From contig CAZUFC010000111.1 in assembly GCA_964619725.1 (NCBI GenBank), positions 1 through 25,933 of the forward strand: DNA of 25,933 bases. The letters are read 5' to 3'. The translations under genes were made by a program, and so were the position numbers. This document shows positions 6,701-24,198 of this stretch, in pieces; position 1 is the stretch's first letter; each line of letters opens with the position of its first letter. This stretch comes from an uncultured bacterium. Lineage in GTDB: Bacteria; CSSED10-310; CAZUFC01. The notes beneath the pieces were generated by a model, which was given only the letters and a program-made list of their open reading frames with translations, did no database searches and was not told the origin of the DNA.

Positions 6701-9700
6701 CCTCATAAAACCTCACAGTGAAAGGATCGCACGGTAAATTCCCGATGTTGTGCACTTCAACCGTGATGATGGTGAGTTCTCCTTCCAAAGGTGCAACAGG
6801 ATCAAAACTGATGCTCTGACTGGTAATCTCCAGGTCCGCGGCCGGGGTCGGCGTATCGGTGGGTAAAGGCGTAGGCGTGAAAGTCGGCATGGGAGTCGGA
6901 GAAAAAGTATCAGTGGGTAATGGCGAAGGCGTCCGGGTCGGCGAATTGGTCGGCGTTGAGGTTATCGTGGGAGTTTGCGTGATAGTCGGCGTTTCCGTTG
7001 CAGTCGCTGTCGGCGATTCGGTCGGCGTCTCCGACGGCGTTTCGCTCGGAGTTTCCGTCGGAGTGTCGGTAGGCGTATCTGTGGGAGTTTCTGTCGGAGT
7101 GTCGGTCGGAGTATCTGTAGGGACATCTGTCGGAGTATCGGTCGGTACCGGCGTCTCCGTCGGCTCAGGAGTGTCGCTCGGTACCGGCGTCTCTGTGGGC
7201 TCAGGAGTGTCACTCGGTACCGGCGTCTCCGTCGGCACAGGCGTTTCGGTCGGCACAGGCGTTTCAGACGGCGCAACTGTCGGCGTGTAATACACTACTC
7301 CCTCATCATCATGGAAACCCATATCCACAGTCCCCAGATCAGCAACCGCATCGGTCCTCGTCGTCAGCTCAGACAGGCATATCGAACCTGCCTCATTCGT
7401 ATAACAGATATTTGCAGACAGGTCGCTGCCGGCATCGACGCAGGGACTCGTCGTCATTTGTCCCGCAGCTATGTGACTTAAATCATAGTAACTGCCCGCG
7501 AATTCAGGATCGGCTTCGATATTCCCGGCGCCCCAGGTCAAAACGGACGTGCCGTCTACATAAACGCCGGCCTGCCCGCCCGCAACGTCGCAATGCGAAA
7601 CTGTAAAAGAGCTGCTTTCCTCAAGAGCCATCTCATCGTAATAACCGTAAACGGAAGTGTTCCCCCAGATAATATTGTTCGTAAACGCGCCTTCCGCCGA
7701 ATCGTAACCGTATACGGCCCCGACGTAATCGCTGCTGTTGTTCGTCATAGTGTTGTTCGTCACTGTCGGTGAAGCTGAACTCCTGATGTCCAGTACGCCG
7801 CCTCCCGTCGAAGTGCAGTAGTTATCAATGAACAAATTGTTCACGATTTCGGGATTGCAGAGACTCTCCATGTATACGGCTCCGCCCTGATCCCCCGTAT
7901 TCTTGGCAATAAAATTGTTGGTGATCGTCGGGGATGATTCGCTCGTACAGTAAATCCCGCCGCCCGACAATCCTTCGTTCTCCGAGATGTTGTTGTCTGT
8001 TATCAGGGGATTCGACGCCGTAAGATACACGGCGCCTCCATGACCGACTATATTGGTCGTGTTGTCCGTCATTAAATTATCGTAAACAGTCGGACTTGAC
8101 TGATCGCAATATAATGCACCGCCGCCTATGCTCCAGGTCCCGTTCCACCGGAATTCGTTTCCGTTTATTTCGCAATCGGAAGCCATTTCGCAATATATCC
8201 CGGCCCCCGCATCTCCTTCATTCGAATGAATCGTATTGCCGGTAATGTGCGGAATTGATACGTTCGTGCAAAATATGCCGCCGCCGCTATAAGCTGTATT
8301 AGCCTGAATCGTATTCCCGGAAATCAACGGTTCAGCAGAATTGTCGCAGAATATGCCGCCGCCCGACATCACCATCATCATCATACCGTTGTTGGAAATC
8401 GTGTTGTTCGTTACCGTAGGCGAAGCGCCGTCGCATGAAATTCCGCCGCCCGTACTGTCCGCTTCGTTCGAATCAATCGTGTTGCCGTGAATCTGAGGTT
8501 GACTCTCCGAACAGTAAATGCCGCCTCCTTCCGAGCCTGAATTCATCGATATCGTATTGTTCATGATAGCAGCGTTCGAGTCCGTTTCACAATTGATGCC
8601 GCCGCCCTGCATCGACATGTTTTCATTAATCGTATTCGGCGTCATTGCACCGATTTGAGGTGATGAATATTCAAGATAAATTCCGCCCCCGCCCGACATG
8701 GCCTCATTGCCGTTGATCTGATTGTCGTCGATCGGAGGATCAGAACTTGTGCAGGCTATTCCGCCGCCGTAATCGGAATAATTGTATTCTATCGTGTTCC
8801 CCTGTATCACGGGAACGGCTCCATTGGCGCAATATATACCGCCGCCGTACATTCCCATCATCATCATGAGATTGTTCATGGATATCTCATTGTTGGTTAT
8901 CGTCGGCGATGATCCGTCACAGTATATGCCGCCGCCGGATTCCGCCTGGTTATCTTCAATCGTATTCCCCTGAATCGTTGAATTCACTGAACCTGCACAG
9001 GCAATACCGCCGCCGTACATCCCCATCATCATCATGGCATTATTCTGCCATATATGATTATCGACGATATCCGGAGAACAATCCTCCAAATAAATGCCGC
9101 CGCCCATCGACGTCCCGTCATTATTCATGATCTCATTGTTGGTGATGGCGGGTTCGGAATTCCGGCATGCAATGCCGCCGCCCGCATCTGAATAATTTCC
9201 GTCCACATTATTGTTCGTTATCATCGCATTGGACGAATCCTCCAAGGCTATGCCGCCGCCGAACATACCCATCATCATCATTTGATTATTCATCGTAATA
9301 GTGTTCGTATCGATCAGGGGCGAGGAGCCGCTGCAGTATATGCCGCCGCCAGTGTCTCCGTTATTGTCCGATATCGTATTTCCCTGAATGGTCGGTTCAG
9401 CTCCTGACAGACAGGCGATACCGCCGCCGTACATCCCGTTCATCATGCCGTTGTTATAATCAATATTGTTGTCGATAATGTTCGGATTGCAGGATTCGAC
9501 GTAAATGCCGCCGCCGTAACTCTGTCCGTCGTTTGTCGTAATAGTGTTGCCCTCTATCTGAACGTCGGAACTCGAACAATAAATGCCGCCGCCGCTGTCG
9601 GAATAGTTCCCGTCGACGGTGTTATTCGTTATCGTAGCATTGGACATTGATTCGCAGGCTATTCCGCCGCCGTACATGCCCATCATGGCCATCTGGTTGT

Positions 9701-11483
9701 TGTAATTGATCTGATTCTGGTCGATCACAGGCATTGAACTGTTGCCGCAGTAAATCCCGCCGCCGGTATCCCCAACATTATTTTCAATAGTATTCATTTG
9801 AATAAGAGGACTGGAGCTTTTGTCGCAGGCTATGCCGCCGCCGTACATTCCCATCATCGACATCGAGTTGTTTTCGGAAATGGTATTGCCCGTTATCTGA
9901 GGCGATGAACCGTCCAGGCAGATTCCGCCGCCGGACGTCATGCCTTCGTTATACTGAATATCATTGTCGGTTATAGGCGGATCAGAAGACAGAAGGTATA
10001 TGCCGCCTCCCGAATCGCTGTAGTTCTCATAGATCGTATTGCCGGAAATGTTGAAACCGGTCGCATTTTCGCATGCTATGCCCCCTCCGTACATTCCCGT
10101 CATCATCGACTGATTATTCCGGGTGATCTGATTGTTCGTGATCCCCGGCGCAGCAGAATTGCAATAGATGCCGCCGCCCGTATCGCCGTAATTGTCCTCT
10201 ATGTTGTTATTGTCGATCACTGGAGCCGAACCGTTCTCACAGGAAATGCCGCCTCCGTACATGCACATCATACCCATGGTGTTGTTCCAGGAGATCGTAT
10301 TGTCGGAAATTTGAGGACTTGAACCGTCCAGGTAAATCCCCCCGCCGGACGTCATGGCGTCATTGTAATCGATATTGTTATACTGGATCGTCGCATCGGA
10401 GGAGTTGCAATAGATGCCGCCGCCCATATCGCTGGAATTATTGCTTATCATGCAGTAAGTGATCGTGGGCATTGACCCGTTCTCGCACGCTATGCCTCCA
10501 CCGTACATTCCCATCATGTATTCATTGTTTCTGTTGATCTGGTTGTTGTAAACCGTCGGGGATGAACTGTCGCAATAAATCCCGCCGCCCGTCTCGGCAA
10601 TGTTCTCCTCTATGGTGTTCCCCTCAATATTGGGACTCGAACCGTTCTCGCAATATATCCCTCCTCCGTAATTCCCCCAAAGGGCCGTCTGATTGTTGCG
10701 TACTATCTGATTGTTGCTGATTTCAGGCGAAGAAGCGTCCAGATAGATGCCGGCCCCACTCATTCCGTCGTTCTGATCAATCTCGTTGCCTGTTATCGTC
10801 GGCGTTGATGATGAACAGAGTATCCCGCCGCCGTATTCCGAATAACTGTCGCTGATAGTGTTGTCGCTTATTTGCGGGCCCGAATCGCTTTCACAACCTA
10901 TCCCGCCGCCTGCATATGCCTCATTATAATCAAAATCATTGTTCTGGATGTTCGGGGATGAACCAGAACAATATATGCCGCCGCCCAGATTGTCCGCCGT
11001 GTTGCTCTCCAGGTAATTCTCCCGGATGTCCGCATCGGCCCCGTTCATGCAACCTATTCCCCCGCCGTTCATCGCTGAATTATTGACGATATAATTATTC
11101 GTTATCGTCGGGGACGATCCGTCGCATAATATCCCGCCGCCTTCACTCATCGCCGCGCCGCTCGTTATTGTGAAACCGTTGATCACCGCAGCGGATGTCT
11201 CTCCGCTGCTGAAAACCACTGCACTGTCCGTCATGTCACCCTCTATTGTGCAGGAAGAGTACCCGTTCTCGCTCGTCAGGACGACATTCTTACCGTTGAA
11301 ATTAATGTTTTCGTTATACGTCCCGTCCTCAACGTATATCGTGTCCCCGTCCATGACCGACGGATCATCCAGCGCCTCCTGAATCGTTGAAAAATCCGTC
11401 ATTACATACCAGTCTGCGCCCTGCGCTGGCCAGACCAGCAGACTGGTGAGGATCAGCCCCAAAATACAATAGCGACCAGTCAT
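3720..11483 (-). CDS. Giant secreted/cell-surface protein: signal peptide, right-handed parallel beta-helix repeats, Pro/Thr stalk, CARDB, Ig/FN3-like, carboxypeptidase-regulatory-like domain, second Pro/Thr stalk, IPTL-CTERM-like sorting tail
   Basis: Signal peptide ending PAQG-A; dozens of GGGIxC..SSPxIxxNxIxxN coils; ADLEIT...DELNENNNEA (CARDB); ITGYVR...PIEGATVTA...GYY...GTYNVTAGADGY; C-terminal IPAFSGLGIFALLVLFACAIL plus RKLLKERK. AAGGAGG RBS upstream. Confidence 0.9.
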   Translation of the reverse strand: MTGRYCILGLILTSLLVWPAQGADWYVMTDFSTIQEALDDPSVMDGDTIYVEDGTYNENINFNGKNVVLTSENGYSSCTIEGDMTDSAVVFSSGETSAAVINGFTITSGAAMSEGGGILCDGSSPTITNNYIVNNSAMNGGGIGCMNGADADIRENYLESNTADNLGGGIYCSGSSPNIQNNDFDYNEAYAGGGIGCESDSGPQISDNTISDSYSEYGGGILCSSSTPTITGNEIDQNDGMSGAGIYLDASSPEISNNQIVRNNQTALWGNYGGGIYCENGSSPNIEGNTIEENIAETGGGIYCDSSSPTVYNNQINRNNEYMMGMYGGGIACENGSMPTITYCMISNNSSDMGGGIYCNSSDATIQYNNIDYNDAMTSGGGIYLDGSSPQISDNTISWNNTMGMMCMYGGGISCENGSAPVIDNNNIEDNYGDTGGGIYCNSAAPGITNNQITRNNQSMMTGMYGGGIACENATGFNISGNTIYENYSDSGGGIYLLSSDPPITDNDIQYNEGMTSGGGICLDGSSPQITGNTISENNSMSMMGMYGGGIACDKSSSPLIQMNTIENNVGDTGGGIYCGNSSMPVIDQNQINYNNQMAMMGMYGGGIACESMSNATITNNTVDGNYSDSGGGIYCSSSDVQIEGNTITTNDGQSYGGGIYVESCNPNIIDNNIDYNNGMMNGMYGGGIACLSGAEPTIQGNTISDNNGDTGGGIYCSGSSPLIDTNTITMNNQMMMMGMFGGGIALEDSSNAMITNNNVDGNYSDAGGGIACRNSEPAITNNEIMNNDGTSMGGGIYLEDCSPDIVDNHIWQNNAMMMMGMYGGGIACAGSVNSTIQGNTIEDNQAESGGGIYCDGSSPTITNNEISMNNLMMMMGMYGGGIYCANGAVPVIQGNTIEYNYSDYGGGIACTSSDPPIDDNQINGNEAMSGGGGIYLEYSSPQIGAMTPNTINENMSMQGGGINCETDSNAAIMNNTISMNSGSEGGGIYCSESQPQIHGNTIDSNEADSTGGGISCDGASPTVTNNTISNNGMMMMVMSGGGIFCDNSAEPLISGNTIQANTAYSGGGIFCTNVSIPHITGNTIHSNEGDAGAGIYCEMASDCEINGNEFRWNGTWSIGGGALYCDQSSPTVYDNLMTDNTTNIVGHGGAVYLTASNPLITDNNISENEGLSGGGIYCTSESSPTITNNFIAKNTGDQGGAVYMESLCNPEIVNNLFIDNYCTSTGGGVLDIRSSASPTVTNNTMTNNSSDYVGAVYGYDSAEGAFTNNIIWGNTSVYGYYDEMALEESSSFTVSHCDVAGGQAGVYVDGTSVLTWGAGNIEADPEFAGSYYDLSHIAAGQMTTSPCVDAGSDLSANICYTNEAGSICLSELTTRTDAVADLGTVDMGFHDDEGVVYYTPTVAPSETPVPTETPVPTETPVPSDTPEPTETPVPSDTPEPTETPVPTDTPTDVPTDTPTDTPTETPTDTPTDTPTETPSETPSETPTESPTATATETPTITQTPTITSTPTNSPTRTPSPLPTDTFSPTPMPTFTPTPLPTDTPTPAADLEITSQSISFDPVAPLEGELTIITVEVHNIGNLPCDPFTVRFYEDDGTGPVQIGSDQLMWGLEVNDTATAAEFWTAACDVRIIVEVDVLEEIDELNENNNEAEKGDPIQYCIGGVAVGIDPEEDTATVGGVAEFTVTVDNSNMGIDIFDLAVSGDLPASWHTLEPAQLTLNAGESGVAVLTVEIPDSCSSVDTYPFEVTAASSVLGEDYSCEAVLDVGGNVEISQRYPQDGITSGSNEVTFSWHTSDIANTWLHYRIVGEPVWLIVPVGQDETQHELEVESLARNETYEWFIHSVSLCGEFDSEIWTFEVGNGVVFTEDNYVFTVERDYDQHVFVGVENQDVVSHTVELHIDNPHEELIVNFVGPGSEDETVTLLPGEVMDIELVIHAQDVQAGNDKPLEVCFATTLTLVADEDGDPITDSAPTDICVQWPDVYFLVTEENSDPVSEIKECRVANMSDPVTDMTVVAQNGLIGNVLFVPRIEHYRMGAGSNLDFYVEPLFELGETLIQGDLHAEAGGVEQTLPLTFECEAPRQVFEAVVAEPKLCYTMANWFCTNRPNINMHFDVSLGSEAVVGAAMFTTFNPRPDVRRHYIKLYINNHLIGELNDLIPRGTYGFAFDPGYLNINPDGSASNTFSIRTQHFNGGHYVVSTNSMCVLRLDSIMVNICAGSQQEADDIAQELPQFCEGYSIDLPPRILEVKITNPEGDTMNVFYPGETARIQVRAENPHPFNAYDLACTMKVDTDGNLSEPEYDSHEEDEDGMMSLNPNENEWYSFYWPVTDESADIMVALELHDADDYEVCYDCPGYDWSFHVGGGITGYVREYGSLSPIEGATVTASGGKSDADGSNPAGYYDILRLQNGTYNVTAGADGYVPQTLSGLEVDMNILVNQDFELVKATETPTPTITMTPTFTLTPTVTQTPTVTLTPTVTQTPTITIPPTVTSTPTITQTPTITNTPTISPTRTATATRTGTPTQSPTLTPSETPTPSYSPTSSWTPTITQTPTPAPIPAFSGLGIFALLVLFACAILGNRKLLKERK
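3822..4150 (-). repeat. Thr/Pro-rich hexapeptide repeats (TPTxTx), C-terminal stalk
   Basis: TPTITMTPTFTLTPTVTQTPTVTL... in the translation. Confidence 0.9.
6845..7290 (-). repeat. Pro/Thr-rich stalk (TPVPTE, PTDT, TPTIT) with a near-perfect 36-nt tandem repeat at 7144-7236
   Basis: ggtaccggcgtctc(c/t)gt(c/g)ggctcaggagtgtc(g/a)ctc starts at 7144 and 7180, with a partial third copy at 7216. Confidence 0.9.
7660..11145 (-). repeat. Beta-helix coil array with a 414-nt (138-aa, 5-coil) super-repeat
   Basis: Equivalent Met codons of MYGGG lie at 10260, 9846, 9432 and 9018, each 414 nt apart. Confidence 0.85.
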
Positions 11484-11683
11484 TGAGTCCTCCTTCTGAA
11501 AATTGTCAATGTTCTTGAAAAAAATACATCAAAATCAAATACATCCCTACGCCAAACTCGAATCTCTGAAACTCTTCACCCTGCGATTGTTGCCCTTGAT
11601 TAACCCCGCAATTGGACCTTCATCATTTATTAAAGCAAAAAATTATTAAAAGCAAATTCTTCGCAACTTATTTTTTAATTTAA

Positions 11684-11730
11684 GCCTGTCCGGAAACTCT
11701 CCTTAACTCCGCATGCCCAAACAGACAGGC
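11684..11730. repeat. Intergenic palindromic element, copy 2 (GCCTGTC-N33-GACAGGC)
   Basis: 7-bp perfect arms at 11684-11690 and 11724-11730, about 20 bp after the stop of the ATP-grasp paralog. Confidence 0.7.
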
Positions 11731-11749
11731 GCCGATCCCCAAAAAAAGA

Positions 11750-12781
11750 TCAGCCGGATATATCTTTGAAATTTTTATGGTCCAAAAGATCGTCAACGGC
11801 ATAATGCGAAAAAACGATTCCTAAAGGATAATCCCCCCGTGATTCGTGATTCGCACTTTTACCTTGTACTGCTGACAGTATCCACTCAGCCGCCGGATTA
11901 TACCCCATTTGCGACCATATTCCGCTCCAGCTCGGAAAACCGGGCTCGATATTTTTCAGAAGATATCCATCACTCTGGGTCGAAAAAAAATTCACTGTAA
12001 AAGGCGCCGGGCAGCTCAACGCCTCACACAATTTCTGCAATATCGCCTCCAGCGAAGGATCGCGGAACGTTATCCCCATCCAGGGTATTCCGTAATCATT
12101 CTCAATTATGTGCCTGACCGAAAATGACTTAAGAAATGCGCCCTTCTCATCAGGCAGAATCAGAGCAGAACCTTTAAATCCTTCCGGTTCCTGGTAAAAA
12201 AACAGAAAATCTTGAGAGGCGAATTTTGCTCTTAAAGCTTCGACGTCCTGCCGCATAGATACTTTGTATCTTCGTCCTTCCGCGGTCTCGAGATAAATCG
12301 CTTTTGCAGAAGAAAAAATCTTCAGGTCTAAAGTATCCAGGGGTTTGAGCAATTGCCCGGGCACAAGAGGCAATCTTTCTTCCATCGCCAGGTTCCGGAA
12401 AAATTCCTGGAAAAATAAAGGAAGCTGATCCTTTGAGGGCAAGCGAACCCTCAAACCTCTTGAACGGAAATCGGCCTTTGCTGAAACGGCGGCGGTAATT
12501 TCATTTTTCCTTCCCGGAAGAAAAAGTTGAAAACGATCTTTCTCATGAGCTTGCAAAATAGCTTCTGCCCAACTGCCGGCATCATCATCAGGGTTCGGCG
12601 CATTTATCAAAGCATCCCATAATCCGGGATAAAATGCGCCGGATTCCTTATGATCTTCGACCACGCCCGTCAGTCTTACGGTAAATCGACTATTGCTTTT
12701 AAGGCTTAAAGCGAGTCCGACTGCTGCAGAAGGCGTATCGGAATTCATCAAACCTGAAAGAGCGATATGAAATTTTTTCAT
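11750..12781 (-). CDS. Degenerate ATP-grasp-like paralog (probable pseudo-enzyme)
   Basis: Aligns by eye end to end with 12778..13830 (FHIALSGLMNSDTPSAAVGLALSLK vs ITVGITGMDSLENPYPGLAVASCLK; FPSW vs FPAW; YPLGIVF vs YRPGALF). ATG at 12781 overlaps the upstream stop (ATGA). The ExNxR motif is replaced by NIEPG. Confidence 0.75.
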   Translation of the reverse strand: MKKFHIALSGLMNSDTPSAAVGLALSLKSNSRFTVRLTGVVEDHKESGAFYPGLWDALINAPNPDDDAGSWAEAILQAHEKDRFQLFLPGRKNEITAAVSAKADFRSRGLRVRLPSKDQLPLFFQEFFRNLAMEERLPLVPGQLLKPLDTLDLKIFSSAKAIYLETAEGRRYKVSMRQDVEALRAKFASQDFLFFYQEPEGFKGSALILPDEKGAFLKSFSVRHIIENDYGIPWMGITFRDPSLEAILQKLCEALSCPAPFTVNFFSTQSDGYLLKNIEPGFPSWSGIWSQMGYNPAAEWILSAVQGKSANHESRGDYPLGIVFSHYAVDDLLDHKNFKDISG

Positions 12782-13830
12782 TTTTTCCACGATATTGTCC
12801 CGCTGGAAGCAAGTCCGGCGAATTCTGAAAATTCAGCGGCGGCGATATTGATGTTTCTGAAGAACAGGGCTCCAGGGCGATACTCACTTTCCGGCAAATC
12901 CATCCCCAGAGCGCGACAAACGGTCATATAGGGGAAATTAATTCCTGCTTTCACACATAGGGCGACCCAGGCCGGAAATCTTGCGTTCATCTCCAGCAGG
13001 TAATAAGTTCCCGTTGAGGCTTCACGCATTAACTCAAGTTCACATGGTCCCACCCATTGCAGTTTTCTCAATGTTCGTTCGGCATATTCCCTTAGTTCTC
13101 CGGAATCAAGCGCTAACCCTGAAAAAGCTTTTCCCCGTCCGGTTATGCCGAATTTCCTCATGGGTAAAACAGCAAGCGGTTTATGATCCCTGTCCGCTAT
13201 CGCCATTATGTCATATTCGTCTCCGACGATGCGCCGCTGAACTATTACGGGATAACCCCAGTCATTCAATATACGCCGGTAAAAATATTTTGCTTCAGCA
13301 AGATTTTCAGCCTTTTCCGCATCAATTATCGAACCTTTTATATACAAAGGAAAACTGAATCTCTGTTCAATGCTGTCCAGTTGTTCCTCGTAATTTAATA
13401 TCTCCGTCAACGGCGTCGGGATGTTTTCTCTCCTGCAAGTGTGAAGCAGACTCGTCTTAGCCCTGCTTTTCACTGCACGCTCCGAAGGAATTAAAGTACG
13501 TATGCCCAACTCATCCAATTCGTTCCGGATTCTCGCGTAAAGCGCTATCTCTGAATCCAGCGCCGGAATAAGAACGTCAATAGGATTCTCCTTCTGCAAC
13601 TTCATATAACCGCTAAGCATGACTGTCTCCGAATCGCTAGGATAGGGAATCAGAACGACGGAATCAATCGCTTCCCGGCAGTATATGCCGGTCGTCGTAG
13701 GTTCATACGTCAACGCTCTTACATGGATATCCGCCCCCTTTACCGCCTTTAAACAGGAGGCTACCGCCAGACCGGGATAAGGATTCTCCAGAGAATCCAT
13801 TCCTGTTATTCCTACAGTTATCCTTCTCAT
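12778..13830 (-). CDS. ATP-grasp domain carboxylate-amine ligase
   Basis: IDVLIPALDSE; FPLYIKG (ATP-binding Lys); YPVIVQRRIVGDEY; GPCELE; YYLLEMNARFPAW (ExNxR). Start overlaps the PqqD-like stop (ATGA at 13827-13830). Confidence 0.9.
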   Translation of the reverse strand: MRRITVGITGMDSLENPYPGLAVASCLKAVKGADIHVRALTYEPTTTGIYCREAIDSVVLIPYPSDSETVMLSGYMKLQKENPIDVLIPALDSEIALYARIRNELDELGIRTLIPSERAVKSRAKTSLLHTCRRENIPTPLTEILNYEEQLDSIEQRFSFPLYIKGSIIDAEKAENLAEAKYFYRRILNDWGYPVIVQRRIVGDEYDIMAIADRDHKPLAVLPMRKFGITGRGKAFSGLALDSGELREYAERTLRKLQWVGPCELELMREASTGTYYLLEMNARFPAWVALCVKAGINFPYMTVCRALGMDLPESEYRPGALFFRNINIAAAEFSEFAGLASSGTISWKK

Positions 13831-14090
13831 TCCGTCTCAACCAGTCCCTTTCTTTCAAGCTCCAGAAAAAAATTTTTGACTTCTTCACGAACGTCGCACC
13901 CTTCAGTTTCGTACGTTTCATGAAGTTTTAAAACCGCTGCGTTCATTGCCGGATTCCGCTCAATCGCCTTCAGTAAAAAAACGCCTACTTCGTTGATCCG
14001 GTAGGCCCTCCCTCTCCTTCCGTCAAAAAGTACCCCCACATTTTGATCTAAACTGCAACGAACATCCGGCGACAACCTGATTTTTTCCAT
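13827..14090 (-). CDS. Stand-alone PqqD-family / RiPP recognition element (RRE) protein, 87 aa
   Basis: GVLFDGRRGRAYRINEVGVFLLKAI...LHETYE...VREEVKNFFLELERKGLVE matches the PqqD pattern of three strands then three helices. AGAGG RBS 7 nt before the ATG at 14090. The longer ORF start overlaps the TPR gene. Confidence 0.88.
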   Translation of the reverse strand: MEKIRLSPDVRCSLDQNVGVLFDGRRGRAYRINEVGVFLLKAIERNPAMNAAVLKLHETYETEGCDVREEVKNFFLELERKGLVETE

Positions 14091-14151
14091 GCGGCAACCT
14101 CTTTTTGATCTTATATGTTGAGCAGAAGTTTTTCCTCTTTTCTGAAAACAG

Positions 14152-16158
14152 TCACTGACTTTTCGAATTTTTATCCCGGGAGAGTTTCTTATCAAGTTCG
14201 CCAAGCCCCTCCTTCGCCTCCTGATATTCGGGCGCCAGACTTAGCGCCTGTTCGAAGGCCCTTCTCGCCTGTTCGAGATATGAAAGCTTTAAAGCGGCCC
14301 AGCCCAGTCCGTTCCACGCCTCGTAAAGGTCGGCCTTCGCCTGAGTAATTTCTTCAAATATTTTATGAGCTTCCAGATAATTACCCTGTTCGTAGAGAAT
14401 ATCCGCATATTGGATGCGATAATCAGGTTCATCGGGAAAATCTTTCATGAGGGACTGGTAAAGCTTGGCCGCCTGACTGTATTTATTCCGTTTCAATATT
14501 GTCTGTGCCAACCCGTCGCGGGCAAACGGATTCTCCGGGGATAACTCAATAACCTTTTTAAAAGCTTCTTCCGCTCGATCAAGTTCCTTGACCCTCAAAT
14601 AAGACCACCCCAGGCCGCTGTAGACCTTCCACTGTTCTTCTTCGTCCAGATGTTTCCAGTCATTTTCTATGCTCTTTTTAAACTGACCGATCGCTTCCTC
14701 GTAACGTTCTTCGTAAAAACTGCTCCACCCGCTGCTGTAATTCTGCTTGTAATGCTGCAATACCGCATTCTTCCCATTAATTGCGTCCTGATAATTAGGA
14801 TTTATGCTTAACGCTTTCGTAAAGCTCTCCAAAGAGGCTTCATACTCCTCTTTTTTCAGTTTGCACCATCCCAGTCCCGAAAGCAGGTCTATCCATTTCG
14901 GATGCGCTTCAAGACCTTTCTCGAACTGCTCCTCGGCTTCCTCATATTTTTCCTGGTAGTAGTAAGACCAGGCCAGGGTTGAACGGGCATTCGTTTTTAT
15001 GGTGAATGAACTTACCGATCCGGATAGCGTTACGTTCTGCTCGACTTCTATCGGATCGGAAATGACCGATAAATAATATTTCAGAGTATCGATCGCTTTG
15101 TCGTACTGTTCGAGCTGGAAATATGCATATCCCAGTCCTAGAAATAATCCTGAATCTTCCGGCATCTTCTGCAGACCATACATGAAAGTGTCCAATGCGG
15201 ACTTGTAATTTTCATACCGGTAATAACTCCAGGCAAAATCGCTGTACAAATCCCACCAATCCTCACGTCCGTTTATAACCTGAAATAAGAAAGAAACTGA
15301 CTGATGCTGAGGATTCAGTTCAATGGCTTTCCTGAATTCCTTTTTCGCTTCCGTAAATTCCGACTGCCGGTAACTGCTCCAACCGATGCCGTAATGAGCG
15401 TCCGCCAGGTAGGGATTCAATTCTGCTGCTTTCATAAATTCTTTTTCAGCCTGTTCATATTCATTTTTATAATAATAATTCCATCCGATAAAAGATCGTA
15501 CATCCGCCCATTCGGGTTCCTTTTCAGCCGTTCTGTTCAATATTTTCAGAGACTCATCATATTTTTGATGAAAAAACAAAGACAAGCCCTTGCCTTTCAA
15601 AGCATATGCGTTGTTCGGCGAAACAGCCAGAATCTTCTCAAATGATTCGATGGCTTTCTGATAATTCTGCAGATAATAATAAGACCAACCCAATCCGCTG
15701 TGTACCTGCCATGAATCGTCAGGAGGCAATCGGCCCGAATCGTCCTCCAATATCTCCTTAAACGCCTTGTACGCCTTATGATATTCTCCGTTGTAAAAAT
15801 GATTCCAGGCTGAGTTAAAGGGAAGGTATCTCCATTTTTTCACAGCGGTTATCCCCTCCATGGCGCTTTGATCCTGCGGATTCAATTTAAGCGCCTTTTC
15901 AAAAGCATGCTGTGCATCGATGTATTCCCCAAGCCAGTAGTAACTCCAACCCAATCCAGTGAGAGGTTCCGCTATGAAAGGATTCTTCTGTGCAGCCTTC
16001 TTGAATTCGACTACGGCTTTGGAATATTCTCTCTGCTGGAAAAACTTCCACCCCTCTTCCAACTCCGCAGCAGTTATTCTTAAAGCGGGTATGGCCGATA
16101 ATCCCAGCACGACGGCTTTAAAAAGCGACCTTTTTAATTGCTTCAATCTCTTTTTCAT
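14152..16158 (-). CDS. Tetratricopeptide-repeat protein with probable signal peptide; aromatic GLGWSYY-type repeats
   Basis: Basic then hydrophobic N-terminus; repeated GLGWSYY...Y..A...F.KA..LNP units; GAGGG RBS. Confidence 0.9.
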   Translation of the reverse strand: MKKRLKQLKRSLFKAVVLGLSAIPALRITAAELEEGWKFFQQREYSKAVVEFKKAAQKNPFIAEPLTGLGWSYYWLGEYIDAQHAFEKALKLNPQDQSAMEGITAVKKWRYLPFNSAWNHFYNGEYHKAYKAFKEILEDDSGRLPPDDSWQVHSGLGWSYYYLQNYQKAIESFEKILAVSPNNAYALKGKGLSLFFHQKYDESLKILNRTAEKEPEWADVRSFIGWNYYYKNEYEQAEKEFMKAAELNPYLADAHYGIGWSSYRQSEFTEAKKEFRKAIELNPQHQSVSFLFQVINGREDWWDLYSDFAWSYYRYENYKSALDTFMYGLQKMPEDSGLFLGLGYAYFQLEQYDKAIDTLKYYLSVISDPIEVEQNVTLSGSVSSFTIKTNARSTLAWSYYYQEKYEEAEEQFEKGLEAHPKWIDLLSGLGWCKLKKEEYEASLESFTKALSINPNYQDAINGKNAVLQHYKQNYSSGWSSFYEERYEEAIGQFKKSIENDWKHLDEEEQWKVYSGLGWSYLRVKELDRAEEAFKKVIELSPENPFARDGLAQTILKRNKYSQAAKLYQSLMKDFPDEPDYRIQYADILYEQGNYLEAHKIFEEITQAKADLYEAWNGLGWAALKLSYLEQARRAFEQALSLAPEYQEAKEGLGELDKKLSRDKNSKSQ

Positions 16159-16170
16159 TCGTTTCCCTCT

Positions 16171-16241
16171 TCACATGTGAGATGAGGAGAATATTCTCCC
16201 AGTCAGCATTTTTAATATCCCATCCAAGCTCATGGTGTCAA
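16171..16241 (-). promoter_or_regulatory. Putative promoter (TTGACA-N18-TATTAA on the minus strand) followed by two perfect palindromes (candidate operators)
   Basis: TGTCAA at 16236-16241, TTAATA at 16212-16217, GGAGAATATTCTCC at 16186-16199, TCACATGTGA at 16171-16180. Confidence 0.5.
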
Positions 16242-16376
16242 AAATAATTCGCCTGGCTCATCACACATTGTCTCATTTCTTGCATTCGTCTTTCAGTATT
16301 GAGAAACCATCGCCGTCAGCTCATCACGATTTTTATGGTTGACAATTCTTCGGGAAAAATGAAAATTATGATTACT

Positions 16377-18380
16377 ATGAGTGATGAAACCAAAGAAAAC
16401 AAAAAAATGGAAGCAGGAAAAAAAGACAACAAAAAAAGCAGAAAATTCAGGATCGCAATGATCATAGCGTTTTGCGCCGTTCTTTCCTTGGGATTCGCTT
16501 TTTATCTTGAGCTGGCCAAACGGGACCCGAGCAACTGGCCGAAAGATGTTTTTTTCAAAAATACCGAAGACTTGTTGGGCAAAAAGAAAACCGCAAAAGT
16601 GCACGATATTGTTGAAACAGGCTTTGAAAGATTTCCGGGGCGCAACGAATACATGGCGCGACTCTATTTTCTGGACGGTAGAGCTTACAGATTGGACGGT
16701 GAGCTGGAAAAGGCCCTGGAGCAATATGAAAAAGGATTGGCGGTAGAGGACGTGTTGGACCATATCAAAATTCCACTTCAGCAGGGAATTGTTGAAGTAT
16801 TGCGACTCAAAAGAGAGTATGAGGATGCATTCGAGAGATTGAAAACATACTTTGAAGAAATCAAAGATAATAATAACAAGCTGTGGGTATTTCACACCGC
16901 ATCGAATCTCATCAGGGAAACACGACGTTTTGAGCACATGGAATATTTTATTTCAAAGGGCAAGGAATATTTTGAAAACGATCCTGCGAAGTTGAAGGAA
17001 GTCAGAAGAATCGAAATGGACCTGGAGGTTTTATCAGGTCAGACTGAGCGGTTGCCTGATGATTTCGACGAAGATACTGCAGAAGCGCCGGCACATTCGG
17101 AAAAGGCTGAAGTTATCCTTAATCTTTTGCAATCGCTGGTGGAGAAGGATAATTTCAATGCCACCCGCGAAGCCGCGGATAAACTCAAAAACCTGAAGGA
17201 TTTGAATCCTGAGGAGCGTGGAAATTATTATATCCGGGCTGCTGACATATTCAAGGCTGCCGGTTTGCGCGAGGAAGCCGTCGACATGTATCGTCATATG
17301 ATAGACGAAGAAAACGTTTCCCGGCATTTCATCGCCAGAGCTTACCTGGAGTATGCAAATCAAGCTCGCGAGAGAAATGATTTTTCTACGGCTTTGGAAT
17401 ACTTCAAAAAAGCTGAGGATAAATTCAGCGATTTTCCTCAGTTTTCAGAGGAAGCGATGGGTCAGCGGGCCGTAACCCATCGTATTATGAATCAGCTTGA
17501 CCAGGCTCTGGAAATTCTTGAAAAGCTGATCGACGAAACGTCCGAATCCCGGCGGATCGTCTGGGCGCAAACCATAATGTCGGAAATATATCGACAGAAA
17601 GGCGAGACCGGCAAGGCTAAATCCATACTTGAAAAAATCATTCGGTCTTCCGGCGATAAAATAGACGTGAAAAACAGCGCCCGTTCCGGACTGGCCAATA
17701 TCTACAAGGCGGAAAAACAGTATGATAAGGCTTTGGAGCTGTTCGACGCTATATACGAAGAAGCGACGGATCGCTACAGAAAAGCCTGGGCTTTGGAATT
17801 GAAAGCCGTTCTCTTTAAGGAACGCGGTAAATTTGAGGACGCTGAAAAAGTGTATTCTCAAATCATCGAAGAATTCTCCGATCTATCCTCAATTCACACC
17901 AGAATTCAATTGGATCGCATTTATATGCTCCGAATGATGGGGAAAAACCAGGAAGCCGTAAAAGAATATCAAAAACTCAAGGAAACGACCCAAAGACCCG
18001 ATGAAGGCACGATGGTCTATGAAGCGCTGGCGAACACCTATCAGGGTCAGGGCAATTTTGAAAAAGCGCTTGAAGTTTTCACTGAAATCGAAGAGCAATG
18101 GCCCGGCAACAGGAAAGCGCGCCTGACTTCTTACCGCGGCCGAGCACTGGCTCTTAAAGGTATGAACCGCAATGAAGAAGCAGCACAGGAATTTGAAAAG
18201 CTGTTGAAACTTCAGCCTGACCCTTATATTAAAAGACTGGCTTTGATGAATCTGGCTGAACTTTATTGCGGACTACAGAAGCAGGAAAAAGCGAAAGAAT
18301 TCTATGACCGGTTAAAACAGGAAGCGCCTAATTCCGCCGAAGTCGGAAGGGTTCGGAACGCCTGCGGCTTTCAGGAGTAA
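16377..18380 (+). CDS. Membrane-anchored TPR protein (basic N-terminus, single TM helix); start uncertain
   Basis: KKDNKKSRKFR followed by IAMIIAFCAVLSLGFAFYL, then TPR units such as GLANIYKAEKQYDKALELFD and ALANTYQGQGNFEKALEVF. Several in-frame ATGs lie at 16335-16407. Confidence 0.85.
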   Translation: MSDETKENKKMEAGKKDNKKSRKFRIAMIIAFCAVLSLGFAFYLELAKRDPSNWPKDVFFKNTEDLLGKKKTAKVHDIVETGFERFPGRNEYMARLYFLDGRAYRLDGELEKALEQYEKGLAVEDVLDHIKIPLQQGIVEVLRLKREYEDAFERLKTYFEEIKDNNNKLWVFHTASNLIRETRRFEHMEYFISKGKEYFENDPAKLKEVRRIEMDLEVLSGQTERLPDDFDEDTAEAPAHSEKAEVILNLLQSLVEKDNFNATREAADKLKNLKDLNPEERGNYYIRAADIFKAAGLREEAVDMYRHMIDEENVSRHFIARAYLEYANQARERNDFSTALEYFKKAEDKFSDFPQFSEEAMGQRAVTHRIMNQLDQALEILEKLIDETSESRRIVWAQTIMSEIYRQKGETGKAKSILEKIIRSSGDKIDVKNSARSGLANIYKAEKQYDKALELFDAIYEEATDRYRKAWALELKAVLFKERGKFEDAEKVYSQIIEEFSDLSSIHTRIQLDRIYMLRMMGKNQEAVKEYQKLKETTQRPDEGTMVYEALANTYQGQGNFEKALEVFTEIEEQWPGNRKARLTSYRGRALALKGMNRNEEAAQEFEKLLKLQPDPYIKRLALMNLAELYCGLQKQEKAKEFYDRLKQEAPNSAEVGRVRNACGFQE

Positions 18381-18520: not shown

Positions 18521-20719
18521 TTATGAAGCGCCGCTTGTCTTGCAGAAACGTTTAAGGATGCTTCTCATGCTTAAATAGGAGTCAATATTATAATTCGCGG
18601 AGGTGGGTTTCCATCCTACCTTCAGCGAATAAGCGAATTCCGGCAGCGAGTTGAAAAGTTCTTCATCTGTCCACTCGTCTCCTGCTGCCAGAATAAAATC
18701 CCAATTTTCGCTGACGAGCCAGGAAGCTGCAGCCGCTCCCTTGTTGATGCTCGGATTCTTAATTTCCAGTCGCTTGCTGCCTTCCAATATTCCTAAATCC
18801 TGATGTGCTGTAAGCGCCAGGAGCGCTTCTTTCAGTTCGGCCGTTCTAACTGAGGCGAGTTTCGGATCAGCCTTCTGATATTGAAAAACCAGCGAGAATT
18901 CCTTTTCCTCAACGGTGGAACCGGGAGTGCGGTCAGCGTGCAATTGCACTATATTCCTCAATTCTCTTTTCCAGTTTTTATCCAGGTTTTTTAGAATTTT
19001 CCAATCATTACCTTTCTTTTTTATCCAGGCGCCGTTTTCAGCGATAAACGAGAGGTCAAAACCGGAAAACCAGTCTTCCAGCGTGGACCTTTGTCTTCCG
19101 CTGATTAAAATAATTTCGTTTTTCTCATCTTGCGTAAGCATCTGTAGAATATCAGTCAATTCTTTGTCCGGTCGCGCTTGTTTCAGAGTCCTGTTCGAGG
19201 GTATCAGGGTACCTTCGTAATCAAGCATCAGCAAACGTCTCTTCGATTCAGTATAATGCGTCACAAATTCCTCTTTCACTTCACGGGACAATTTTTTCCG
19301 ATAACGTTGCTGTTGTCTCTCCTTGACGTTAGATAGCCCCAGCATAAACTCATTAGCCCAACGCCCCACGTCATATCGCTCCAGTCGCTCCCGCATAGCC
19401 CCCATCTGTTTTTTCTGGACTTTAATACTACTTTCTAAGGCCCTCTTGATCGCGTTCGCAGTTTCATTCAAATTATTCGGATTCACGATATACGCTTCAC
19501 CGAGTTCTTTGGCGGCTCCGGTCATTTCGCTCAATATCAGACTTCCGCTGCCGTCGGTTTTTGCAGCGACATACTCTTTCGCAATCAGATTCATACCGTC
19601 GCGAATCGGAGTGACGAGCGCAACATCGCTGATGTTGTAGAATGCCGACAAAATGTGGAAGGGAAATGACCTGTAGAAATAACGCACGGGAATCCAGTTG
19701 ACCATCCCATGTTTCCCGTTAATGTATCCTATCAGCTCATCCAATTGCCTCTTTAACTCCCTGTAAGCCCCCACATTTGTCCTGGAAGGCACCGCAATCG
19801 CTAATAAACTCACCTTGCCCCTGAACTGAGGATTATTGTCCAGGAAATAATCAAACGCATGTAATCGATGCAATATTCCCTTAGTGTAATCCAAGCGATC
19901 AACCGATAAAATGATCTTCTGGTCCGGCATATCACGCAAAAGCCTTTTTATCTCTCTTTTAACCTCAGGCGATTGAGGCGCATTGGAAAATTTGGCGAAA
20001 TCTATGCCCATGGGATATGCATCCGCCTTTACGATCCGATCCTCCACTGAAATATAACCTAATGAATGTTCATATCCGCATATGTTCCTCACGCTCTCCA
20101 GAAAATGCTGCACATAATCGTAAGTGTGGAATCCGATAAGATCAGCGCCCAGCATCCCCTGCAACAACTCCTTCCGCCACGGCAGCAATCGAAATATCTC
20201 GTAAGAAGGAAAAGGTATATGAAGAAAAAAACCCAGGGGCGCGTTGGGAAAATTCTTTCTGACTAATTCGGGCAGAAGGAACAAGTGGTAATCATGAATC
20301 CAGATCGTATCCTCATCGCCGGCTCTCTCTGATAAAATATCACTGAATACTTTGTTCACCGATTTGTAATGACCCCATTGACTGTCGTCATATTGAGCAT
20401 AGTCTGAAAAATAATGAAATAAGGGCCAGAGAGTCTTATTGCTGAAACCGTAATAATATTGCTGTATTTGCCGACGGGACAGAAATACTGAATGACAGTT
20501 GTAATCCTTTTCCAACGTATCGCTCACGACGCATCTTTCATCCTTCTTTAAATTGTCCGTCGGCATCCCGCACCAGCCTATCCAGACACTGGTAAACTTG
20601 TCGTGAAACGATTTTAACCCTGTCGCCAATCCGCCTTCACTGAATTTATAATTGAGTTTCGACTTCCGTTTCGATACGGTGACCGGCAAACGGTTGGAAA
20701 CTAATAAAAGTCTTTTCAT
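18521..20719 (-). CDS. otsAB: Bifunctional trehalose-6-phosphate synthase (GT20) / phosphatase (HAD) fusion
   Basis: LLLVSNRLP, GGLATGL, WIHDYHL, FFLHIPFP, VDRLDYTKG, RDGMNLIAKEY, LSEMTGAA; C-terminal HAD domain (LDYEGTL, ISGR, NKG, GDEWTDE). Start placed at MKRLLLVSNR. Confidence 0.95.
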   Translation of the reverse strand: MKRLLLVSNRLPVTVSKRKSKLNYKFSEGGLATGLKSFHDKFTSVWIGWCGMPTDNLKKDERCVVSDTLEKDYNCHSVFLSRRQIQQYYYGFSNKTLWPLFHYFSDYAQYDDSQWGHYKSVNKVFSDILSERAGDEDTIWIHDYHLFLLPELVRKNFPNAPLGFFLHIPFPSYEIFRLLPWRKELLQGMLGADLIGFHTYDYVQHFLESVRNICGYEHSLGYISVEDRIVKADAYPMGIDFAKFSNAPQSPEVKREIKRLLRDMPDQKIILSVDRLDYTKGILHRLHAFDYFLDNNPQFRGKVSLLAIAVPSRTNVGAYRELKRQLDELIGYINGKHGMVNWIPVRYFYRSFPFHILSAFYNISDVALVTPIRDGMNLIAKEYVAAKTDGSGSLILSEMTGAAKELGEAYIVNPNNLNETANAIKRALESSIKVQKKQMGAMRERLERYDVGRWANEFMLGLSNVKERQQQRYRKKLSREVKEEFVTHYTESKRRLLMLDYEGTLIPSNRTLKQARPDKELTDILQMLTQDEKNEIILISGRQRSTLEDWFSGFDLSFIAENGAWIKKKGNDWKILKNLDKNWKRELRNIVQLHADRTPGSTVEEKEFSLVFQYQKADPKLASVRTAELKEALLALTAHQDLGILEGSKRLEIKNPSINKGAAAASWLVSENWDFILAAGDEWTDEELFNSLPEFAYSLKVGWKPTSANYNIDSYLSMRSILKRFCKTSGAS

Positions 20720-20865
20720 CTCTCCTTCTTTCTGTTTTACTTTTTCCATCTTCGATTTCTTCAATTTCGAGTCATCCTCGCTTTTAATGAGCTGATGAGG
20801 AAATCTCACCAAGTGTATCAATTTAAGCGTATCAGAACATTGACGATTTTTCAAAAAGCCTGACG

Positions 20866-23900: not shown

Positions 23901-24198
23901 GCGCCCTATGCTTCCTCAGGATAAATTGACCGATCAAACTCGCTGCAAGAAACTGCAGACTAAAAAATGAGCGCACAGGTCGTTTGCTCGTGAAAATTAC
24001 CAGCGCAGAACAGAAAAAATCAGCGATCAAAAGCCAGAATGCCGTCGTGCCCAGATACCGATGAAAAGTTACCAGTACCTGATGAAGCTGCGAAATCCTG
24101 TAATTAAAAAAATGATCGGCAAAAGCCGCTGCCGCAAAACTCAGAAAAATCAAGCCCAACAAAAACCGAACGGCCATCTTTAAGATTTTGAATTTCAT
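20956..24198 (-). CDS. ArnT/PMT-family (GT-C) membrane glycosyltransferase fused to a PA14 domain and an NHL-like beta-propeller
   Basis: LLRFYRI...IDEAFKG, LFGQNPMALKFVS, ISPWLLAMNR, GLGMYTFPS; PA14-like YTVLWTGSWFAPESNVYRF...LYIDD...LMKGFHSIQV; propeller blades IGPDGSIYVSD, MAVDP..RVYFHD, LEIDASGQVF. AAGGA RBS. Confidence 0.85.
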   Translation of the reverse strand: MKFKILKMAVRFLLGLIFLSFAAAAFADHFFNYRISQLHQVLVTFHRYLGTTAFWLLIADFFCSALVIFTSKRPVRSFFSLQFLAASLIGQFILRKHRAPGLALLLGGPALYLILVRPKDDTPVRRRVSLLDKKKVFTLFILISVLTSLLRFYRIDDFEQRYCFSRDSTIDEAFKGQWAMDFLTGITPYKPFIRHWGERETLYIYCEVLTILLFGQNPMALKFVSIMSGILAIFFLFFLMQRLFNSRKALAGMFLFGISPWLLAMNRISERFNFVPLFTVLAVWLFVRAVQKETAGSWILAGFFGGLGMYTFPSYRVVPVIMLGGMFLWSVGQKKFLRFNWYKMILYWIVFTIVVMTPLMWDINAFIYHFVSAQEHSFKMYRHKSDLGEYLSQLVGFFNYRFRGDMAYWDDGPLLLPFTAVLYLFGLGMSIFNSFFSKRKKVHLFLLLWFLISFLPVIISDPVPRRLGVTQPLLYIFAGNALMSLATMIFYRPVKTGKAMQALFVTIALLTVSGFGIHRFFTRTYNVFEHPDCPEYQRQEFVRANGRYFTVFMTHLGEYQELLYYYKHSNKIDDNQYKLQTINPQDNIPIHYETEKNVLYSIREKPEFERYLPLFSEYHPSSRLITHYNKEDQPMFYTVFIPHDDIEAAQGLKETIFRGEPAFNRPLLESKRIKPTAQWSEIQLTKPYTVLWTGSWFAPESNVYRFTTKGDTPCALYIDDNEILNKSDPRMQESRARFLMKGFHSIQVRAEVIKNCNTLQIEFPFVGVRMKMPAVFFTPFAPRDDPFKAVPIELTDLSFRLEETPELPSPFTDEPIKPTFLEIGPDGSIYVSDSERVTIAKYDADFKFERAWHPLKPEIGSWTTPQPITWERNYPFLFKVTRQGEVFTVPAHEQVLRIYDESGKLKKTVRQLPGHLHYFYSTFEGELYALLSYAPFKWTDEGFRPLFPNVHEKMKGMDPMAMAVDPARNRVYFHDGSWERIHIFDMNGNVVGGMENIEREDNPMLRIDKQGRLYFSALRTHWIRTFSLDNKLLLEKGKTDRKGLFEPPDLPLGRDLEIDASGQVFFLSFEGKIIKYVPEG

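Follow-up and report, generated by a model that had tools for sequence, protein, structure and literature searches.

A stand-alone RRE gene coupled to intact and degenerate ATP-grasp genes: an incomplete variant of a widespread bacterial gene cluster

We analyzed a stretch of 25,933 nt from an uncultured bacterium (GTDB lineage Bacteria; CSSED10-310; CAZUFC01), which is positions 1 to 25,933 of contig CAZUFC010000111.1 in GenBank assembly GCA_964619725.1 and is called the window below. It carries a four-gene operon for a tetratricopeptide repeat (TPR) protein, a stand-alone PqqD-family protein of the RRE type (RiPP recognition element, where a RiPP is a peptide made by the ribosome and modified after translation), an ATP-grasp ligase and a degenerate second ATP-grasp protein, the dead paralog. 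An initial annotation, made from the sequence alone, had proposed these genes as a system of its own. The operon was confirmed: four co-oriented open reading frames (ORFs) occupy 11750-16158 of the minus strand, exactly at the coordinates first noted (Table 1).

Both ATGA start/stop overlaps that the initial annotation had reported are present, at 13830-13827 and 12781-12778, as the junction sequences demonstrate: the RRE/ligase junction reads GAATGAGA and the junction of the ligase and the dead paralog reads AAAATGAAA. The stop of the TPR gene and the start of the PqqD gene are separated by a 61-nt gap with an AGAGG motif 8 bases before the PqqD ATG. Beyond the 266-nt spacer on the 3′ side of the operon, a giant gene for a 2587-aa beta-helix protein begins behind its own AGGAGG, and upstream of the operon there is a second TPR gene in divergent orientation. 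No radical SAM, lasso cyclase, protease or pqq gene was found among the 11 large window ORFs scanned with Pfam and NCBIfam, as the initial annotation had said. A promoter-like site upstream of the TPR gene could be the promoter of the operon. The evidence for it is weak, since the scan returned 9 such sites against 7.6 expected by chance; counts from the terminator and promoter scan of the window were in general close to chance expectation. An Rfam scan of the window and six of the related loci described below gave no riboswitch or other RNA lead, and its sole match was a tRNA in locus L044.

Table 1. Features of the window, and contigs on which relatives of the ligase and of the decarboxylase were found
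Feature	Position	Strand	Remark
TPR gene, operon gene 1	14152-16158	-	668 aa
Stand-alone PqqD-family RRE gene	13827-14090	-	87 aa
ATP-grasp ligase gene	12778-13830	-	350 aa; start overlaps RRE stop (ATGA)
Degenerate ATP-grasp paralog gene (dead paralog)	11750-12781	-	343 aa; start overlaps ligase stop (ATGA)
Promoter-like site upstream of TPR gene	16214-16241	-	10/12 match + TG extension
Spacer 3′ of dead paralog gene	11484-11749	.	266 nt
Divergent TPR gene	16299-18380		upstream of operon
Giant beta-helix protein gene	3720-11483	-	2587 aa
Membrane protein gene with PMT_2-type domain	20956-24198	-	1080 aa
Fused trehalose-phosphate synthase/phosphatase gene	18521-20854		adjoins 1080-aa gene
Multi-pass membrane protein gene	1810-3660	+	616 aa
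Ligase P0003 / decarboxylase P0307			26082-nt contig for each
Ligase P0121 (member of P0002's cluster) / decarboxylase P0301			7922-nt contig for each
Ligase P0005 / decarboxylase P0317			25782-nt contig for each
Ligase P0006 / decarboxylase P0277			31864-nt contig for each
Ligase P0011 / decarboxylase P0286			41977-nt contig for each
Ligase P0014 / decarboxylase P0330			22872-nt contig for each

With one genome taken per species, at least 600 stretches matched the family motif and at least 599 encoded a relative of the ligase. Eighty loci were kept, their ORFs were called and clustered, and profiles were built for the recurrent neighbours. The arrangement seen in the window is not a product of chance: a PqqD gene adjoins the ATP-grasp gene, directly upstream of it, in 77 of the 80 loci. 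Three loci lack it: in L004 and L074 the ATP-grasp gene lies at the edge of the contig, and in L019 no PqqD gene was found. A pyridoxal phosphate (PLP)-dependent decarboxylase of about 450 aa, similar to LysA and FslC, is encoded downstream in 79 of the loci, and the one miss, L064, ends inside its second ATP-grasp gene at a contig edge. A fusion of a urea-transporter domain with an M23 peptidase domain (UT::M23, about 720 aa) is present in 68 loci, a small exported TPR protein (about 205 aa) in 61, and all five parts together in 55.

In Pfam, representatives of the cluster matched Orn_Arg_deC_N/Orn_DAP_Arg_deC, UT with Peptidase_M23, and TPR; for the fusion protein of L024, the values were E 1.4e-44 for UT (PF03253) and E 1.5e-16 for M23. 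In NCBIfam, LysA (E 4e-66) and FslC (E 2.6e-64) are the models nearest to the decarboxylase, which stays under the cut-off of each. No NCBIfam or Pfam model claims the cluster, and no paper describing it or its combination of genes was found in the literature searched, which left subscription-only papers and supplements outside. The loci come from Cloacimonadota, Myxococcota, Ignavibacteriota, Bacteroidota, Planctomycetota and other phyla. We conclude that a cluster of PqqD, ATP-grasp, PLP decarboxylase, UT::M23 and TPR genes is widespread and, within Pfam, NCBIfam and the literature searched, undescribed.

This co-occurrence among the 80 loci bears out the statement in the initial annotation that PqqD, ATP-grasp and TPR neighbourhoods recur in other bacteria without an assigned function, and the curated models and the literature searched gave no match to a characterized pathway either. 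Its interpretation is partly supported. The parts are as it claimed, namely an RRE fold, an intact and a dead ATP-grasp and no precursor encoded in cis, but the conserved system is larger than the four genes, with a decarboxylase in 79 and a UT::M23 protein in 68 of the 80 loci. The object of interest is the family-wide cluster, of which the window carries an incomplete variant.

The core cluster is flanked by lineage-specific extras, for example at L017:2569-3636 and L010:14651-15994. In the Cloacimonadota loci, a radical SAM gene lies upstream of PqqD, and genes for a TPR protein (about 420 aa) and a lipoprotein of about 910 aa lie downstream. Upstream of the core cluster, Ignavibacteriota loci encode an FG-GAP/FlgD-Ig protein and Bacteroidales loci encode DUF2202 proteins. 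L074 comes from a metagenome-assembled record labelled Leptospira interrogans. Its long-branched ligase falls among environmental phyla, and either the label or the binning could be mistaken.

The window agrees with the conserved cluster in having PqqD upstream of the ATP-grasp gene and a TPR protein of the cluster type. No match to the decarboxylase or to UT::M23 was found in any window frame at E <= 1e-3, nor with filters off at E <= 10. Lacking these two parts, the window carries a truncated and atypical form of the cluster and not four genes that make up a system by themselves. The place of the decarboxylase gene in related loci corresponds to the 11484-11749 spacer of the window: in L001, L007 and L004, the decarboxylase gene begins where the second ATP-grasp gene ends, or close by.

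A second ATP-grasp gene was found in 4 of the 80 loci (L001, L004, L007 and L064). A quick tree was made, in which the placement of the long-branched second copies is unreliable. In it, the ligases of all four loci group with the window ligase outside the main clade (76 rows; Shimodaira-Hasegawa-like approximate likelihood ratio test, 97), L001, L004 and L007 together with the closest metagenome proteins, which are labelled Planctomycetota and Omnitrophica. The gene order is TPR, PqqD, ligase, TPR, second ATP-grasp, decarboxylase and UT::M23 in L001 and L007; ligase, second ATP-grasp, decarboxylase and UT in L004; and TPR, PqqD, ligase and second ATP-grasp in L064, followed by the contig end. 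Compared with these orders, the window corresponds to the first four genes of the L064/L001 type.

The 87-aa protein matched Pfam PqqD (PF05402; E 2.4e-9, 37.8 bits against a cut-off of 23.4) and scored 65.3 bits against the profile built from the PqqD genes of related loci, while all NCBIfam PqqD and lasso models remained below cut-off for it (best 29.8 bits against 70). AlphaFold2, with an input alignment of 32 family members, gave a model with a predicted local distance difference test score (pLDDT) of 93 and a predicted template modelling score (pTM) of 0.81. The predicted fold consists of three or four strands followed by three helices and superposes on solved RREs. The best matches were TbiB1 (PDB 5v1v; template modelling score, TM, 0.87; root-mean-square deviation 1.6 Å), TfuB1 (6jx3; TM 0.84) and PqqD (5sxy; TM 0.75), and the top six PDB matches were all lasso B1 chains. 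The RRE fold that had been proposed for this protein is thus upheld by a Pfam match above cut-off and by the likeness of the predicted model to TbiB1, and on these grounds we take the protein to be a member of the PqqD/RRE family. It has the same size and fold as lasso B1 proteins (TbiB1, TfuB1) and PqqD. In contrast to those systems, its partner is an ATP-grasp and not a protease, cyclase or radical SAM enzyme, and no adjacent precursor gene was found.

A complex prediction for the RRE and the ligase scored 0.02 against a mark of 0.32, which counts neither for nor against binding. In P0234 (288 aa), one among 393 fetched proteins, a PqqD domain (residues 4-63) is joined to the N-terminal part of an ATP-grasp. 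Either a genuine fusion or gene calling that ran through the overlapping genes could account for this single case, which was not used as evidence.

A small protein encoded beside an ATP-grasp could also work as a carrier, in the manner of the LysW/LysX or BtrI/BtrJ/BtrK systems. In that case, the 87-aa protein would be a scaffold onto which the ATP-grasp loads an amino acid, and the decarboxylase would act on the tethered residue. The genes of the butirosin pathway run BtrI-BtrJ-BtrK, with BtrJ as the ATP-grasp. The order of small protein, ATP-grasp and decarboxylase of the alanine racemase fold mirrors this order, and no separate substrate gene was found in the 80 loci. BtrK, according to excerpts of PMC7857480, acts on a glutamylated 87-aa carrier, BtrI. 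However, the small protein here is an RRE and has neither the acyl carrier protein fold nor the LysW fold. Only F22 and G27 are invariant in the alignment of 32 PqqD members, and neither is an obvious attachment residue; the C-terminus is not conserved, with Asp or Glu among the last three residues in 21 of the 32 members by eye. We regard a carrier role as highly unlikely.

The 350-aa ligase scored 414.8 bits against its own family profile and keeps all 34 residues found invariant when 40 family members, itself among them, were aligned, so that it is predicted to be catalytically competent. Its matches in Pfam and NCBIfam were PF15632 (ATPgrasp_Ter; 32.6 bits, just above the cut-off of 29.1), CPSase_L_D2, Ddl, PurD and the PRK12767 'carbamoyl phosphate synthase-like' models, the last far below their cut-offs. 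No RimK or microviridin/graspetide-type model was among them. The solved structure nearest to the ligase family by sequence is 2pn1 (E 3.7e-20 for the window ligase), a structural-genomics ATP-grasp resembling 'carbamoylphosphate synthase large subunit', of the PRK12767 family and without a known function; the same structure is closest by fold to the dead paralog. There were 134 relatives of the ligase at E <= 0.001 among 3462 candidates scored, the best of them, itself aside, at 49-50% identity. Their annotations read only 'ATP-grasp domain-containing', 'biotin carboxylase' or 'carbamoyl-phosphate synthase large subunit'.

The 343-aa product of the last gene had no Pfam match, and it matched the ATP-grasp family profile over its full length with 123 bits (E 4.6e-36). 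Of the 34 invariant residues it keeps 9, the changes including K125Q, K165E, K226H, E264T, E266N, E280N, N282E and R284G; the Lys, Glu, Asn and Arg positions lost are presumably those that bind nucleotide and metal in ATP-grasp enzymes generally. The label 'pseudo-ATP-grasp' in the initial annotation was therefore correct. The predicted structure (pLDDT 91.3) had 2pn1 as its best PDB match (TM 0.75/0.83), followed by PurK, biotin carboxylases and L-amino-acid ligases. On this model, the dead paralog has an ATP-grasp fold without the catalytic set and is predicted to be inactive.

The dead paralog is strongly diverged. A full HMMER scan of 1.84 billion representatives returned 160 matches at E <= 0.001, none above 29% identity, a word-based homologue search returned the protein itself alone, and its end branch in the quick tree was 7.86. 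Among the 149 relatives fetched, there were 22 tandem-fused double ATP-grasp proteins of 704-734 aa (P0128-P0256). Seven of the 22 have a degenerate first half, with 14-19 of the 34 invariants, and an intact second half; 2 have a partly degenerate second half; and most of the others keep key residues in both halves. Among the 128 single-domain matches, 52 keep 20 or fewer of the 34 invariants, and 33 of these 52, including the window's own protein, are at least 300 aa long. Judged from these sequences, the dead paralog is a recurrent partner and not debris. The fusion of two copies in other organisms suggests that the ligase and the dead paralog associate. The degenerate-first order of the 7 fused proteins is the reverse of that in the window, in which the dead gene follows the active one.

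The 668-aa TPR protein matched Pfam TPR_2 (E 2e-75). Against the profile of the small TPR family associated with the cluster, it scored 288.4 bits (E 1.3e-86), compared with only 37.4 bits for the divergent TPR protein, and its repeats are of the type that the small TPR proteins of related clusters have. Its N-terminus, a basic stretch followed by a hydrophobic one, looks by eye like a Sec signal peptide, which suggests export. A signal-peptide-like N-terminus is common to the small cluster TPR proteins (L024:16116-16730 and 44 other members). Right after it, they have a conserved 'SYxxExxGxY' with invariant Ser and Glu and then an 'LRLGWLxYL' motif. A relative of the divergent TPR protein was found in 1 of the 80 loci, and this gene was rejected as a part of the system.

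The initial annotation had seen no convincing precursor ORF in the adjacent gaps, and this was borne out: the window gaps contain only ORFs of 23-48 aa without relatives. Only three of this size range overlap the 11484-11749 spacer, none resembling anything in the 80 loci, and the spacer contains no credible ORF. When 1371 small ORFs outside the large genes of the 80 loci were clustered, the sole family spanning many loci was PqqD. The other small-ORF clusters found in at least 3 loci ran antisense to PqqD, ligase or other coding sequences, or lay inside them in another frame, and were discarded. A mark of an RRE is that it binds the leader of a cluster-encoded precursor, and neither the window gaps nor the 80 loci contained a candidate small ORF for such a precursor. 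By sequence, then, no conserved precursor encoded in cis was detectable, a search that would miss fast-diverging precursors.

Since no small precursor gene is conserved beside the cluster, the substrate may be encoded elsewhere or may be the conserved exported TPR protein; exported TPR proteins are the only conserved non-enzyme proteins of the cluster in the 80 loci. RRE-associated precursors with Sec signal peptides are noted in excerpts of PMC12710340, so that an exported substrate would have a precedent, which we treat as a lead only. Two alternatives raised by the initial annotation fell away. The neighbouring giant protein, suggested as a substrate, has a relative in 0 of the 80 loci and was rejected as a part of the system as well, and nothing speaks for a non-ribosomal amino-acid polymer. 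The roles that it gave the RRE, as an adaptor, and the TPR proteins, as a scaffold for export, are hypothetical.

An ordinary graspetide cluster, producing a macrolactone or macrolactam RiPP from a precursor gene that was missed, would also combine an ATP-grasp with an RRE-like partner and TPR neighbours. Graspetide synthetases are likewise ATP-grasp enzymes that act on peptides, and TPR proteins are among the families often encoded near them (excerpts of PMC8939145). Some need a co-encoded helper: excerpts of Carter et al. 2026 (PMC13097080) describe partner-dependent synthetases, including a case associated with a peptidyl-prolyl isomerase (PPIase) and one with the partner protein MirC. In contrast, the partner proteins described in those excerpts are not RREs, and Makarova et al. 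2022 (PMC8939145), as excerpted, mentions PqqD only by analogy. The ATP-grasp here belongs to another subfamily (PF15632/PRK12767/PylC-like), with matches to CPS-like (carbamoyl phosphate synthase-like) and PylC-like models and to none of the RimK/graspetide type in Pfam and NCBIfam, and no small ORF is conserved across the 80 loci or present in the window gaps as a precursor. By these two differences, the locus falls outside the graspetide clusters. A conserved decarboxylase and a channel-peptidase are, moreover, foreign to such clusters and do not fit their logic. Of all the explanations weighed, a graspetide cluster seems to us the most improbable.

The locus is best explained as the ligation module of a widespread, undescribed RRE-associated pathway. 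As to its chemistry, we tentatively favour an RRE-guided amide ligase made of an active and a dead subunit, acting on a substrate that is encoded elsewhere or is the TPR protein, with the window holding part of the pathway. In this mechanism, the active and the dead ATP-grasp proteins would pair as a heterodimer with one active site, and the RRE would dock a peptide or a protein segment onto it. With ATP, the ligase would form an acyl-phosphate on a carboxylate and couple it to an amine, giving an amide bond. In the full system, the enzyme of the diaminopimelate (DAP)-decarboxylase clade would then decarboxylate the newly attached amino acid, and the urea-transporter-like channel fused to the M23 peptidase, with the exported TPR proteins, would handle the product. 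In the window, the pathway would stop at the ligated product or rely on genes outside the 25.9-kb contig.

The order of ligation and then decarboxylation is proposed by analogy. According to excerpts of PMC7857480, FigC/FslC, SbnH, AcsE, MccE and BtrK belong to one clade with DAP decarboxylase, and their substrates are amino acids conjugated to citrate, to a peptide-nucleotide or to an 87-aa carrier protein; since the clade acts on amino acids that are already conjugated, the cluster enzyme may do the same. The full cluster in this respect resembles FigA/FigC (rhizoferrin), BtrJ/BtrK on BtrI, and MccE (microcin C), which ligate first and then decarboxylate. It differs from the rhizoferrin system in that the ligase is an ATP-grasp here and an NRPS-independent siderophore (NIS) synthetase there, and from butirosin BtrI in that the small protein is an RRE and not a carrier protein; the window itself is without the decarboxylase. 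In L024, the residues that follow the final membrane-spanning segment of the UT domain are basic on by-eye reading, and by the positive-inside rule the M23 domain would be cytoplasmic. If this is right, the peptidase would act before export and not on the cell wall.

Extended to the whole family, the proposal would be that an ATP-grasp from outside the graspetide group, directed by the RRE, adds an amino acid to a peptide or protein (possibly the TPR protein or a scaffold peptide encoded elsewhere), that the decarboxylase makes an amine of it, and that the fusion of M23 and pore releases or exports the product, in many phyla and, in the clade of the window, with a heterodimer of active and dead subunits. 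Taken as a whole, this fuller scheme is doubtful.

A small-molecule pathway would account for several of the same observations. There, the ATP-grasp would join a free acid to ornithine, lysine or DAP, or two amino acids to each other, the decarboxylase would convert the product to an amine, and this would leave through the urea-transporter-like channel; the PqqD-like protein would be a structural or regulatory subunit that binds no peptide. The ligase is indeed more like the CPS-like, PylC-like and L-amino-acid-ligase enzymes than like graspetide synthetases, the window gaps and the 80 loci yielded no precursor ORF, and the PF03253 match of the transporter domain suggests a small solute. The decarboxylase resembles FslC, an enzyme that acts on N-citrylornithine (excerpts of PMC7857480). 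On the other hand, the 87-aa protein closely matches the peptide-binding lasso B1 proteins in fold (TM 0.87), 77 of the 80 loci retain its gene, and a small-molecule product would leave the M23 peptidase domain and the exported TPR proteins unexplained. We consider a small-molecule pathway somewhat unlikely.

Several points weigh against the RRE-guided amide ligase. The ligase falls within a CPS-like/PylC-like neighbourhood (PF15632, PF02655, PF21360, PRK12767) known mostly for small-molecule ligases and not for peptide-modifying ones. The heterodimer is inferred from the fused forms only, and the RRE is a putative binder of a peptide and of the ligase. The window lacks two of the five conserved parts. 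The closest relatives of the ligase, in addition, probably keep the decarboxylase, as homologues of it lie on contigs of the same size as those that bear the ligases (Table 1), and the copy in the window may consequently be incomplete or decaying.

The last point raises the alternative that the window holds a decaying or rearranged remnant of a full cluster, the product of which is no longer made. The absence of a decarboxylase and UT::M23, present in 79 and 68 of the 80 loci (with the only decarboxylase miss at a contig edge), would fit such decay, as would their apparent retention by the closest relatives and the extreme divergence of the dead paralog. However, the four ORFs are intact with their translational coupling preserved, the ligase keeps every invariant residue, and the predicted folds of the RRE and the dead paralog are both of high confidence. 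Degenerate second copies occur regularly in this clade and in the fused forms and so are no sign of decay here, and the missing genes may lie beyond the 25.9-kb contig. A remnant is, in our judgement, distinctly unlikely.

RREs serve as class-independent beacons in the search for clusters of peptide natural products, and one main route to amide and ester bonds runs through ATP-grasp enzymes. In the cluster, a stand-alone RRE occurs together with an ATP-grasp that is not of the graspetide clade, and a decarboxylase and a channel-peptidase fusion are added. If the fuller family-wide scheme set out above is right, it would represent a new class of RRE-dependent modification without the usual precursor encoded in cis. 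The identity of the substrate would either add new RRE-dependent chemistry or show that RRE folds serve outside peptide maturation, and either outcome would change how RRE hits are read in genome mining. The pair of active and dead ATP-grasp proteins, which also occurs in fused form, would be a clean case for the study of a pseudoenzyme and its partner. Without two of the conserved parts, the window is a poor model for such work.

The remaining genes of the window were rejected as parts of the system: relatives of the trehalose synthase, the PMT-like transferase, the major facilitator superfamily (MFS) protein, the thiolase and the 616-aa membrane protein are encoded in 0 of the 80 loci. The 616-aa protein is a multi-pass membrane protein without a Pfam or NCBIfam match. 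The giant 2587-aa protein has many parallel beta-helix repeats with a Met-rich motif of the 'MMGMYGGGI' kind. It also has linkers rich in Pro and Thr, CARDB and CarboxypepD_reg domains and, at the C-terminus, a hydrophobic segment with basic residues after it. The 1080-aa membrane protein has a PMT_2-type glycosyltransferase domain and a weak PA14 match below cut-off. The adjoining gene encodes a fused trehalose-phosphate synthase/phosphatase, which matched NF011071 with 954 bits against a cut-off of 634.

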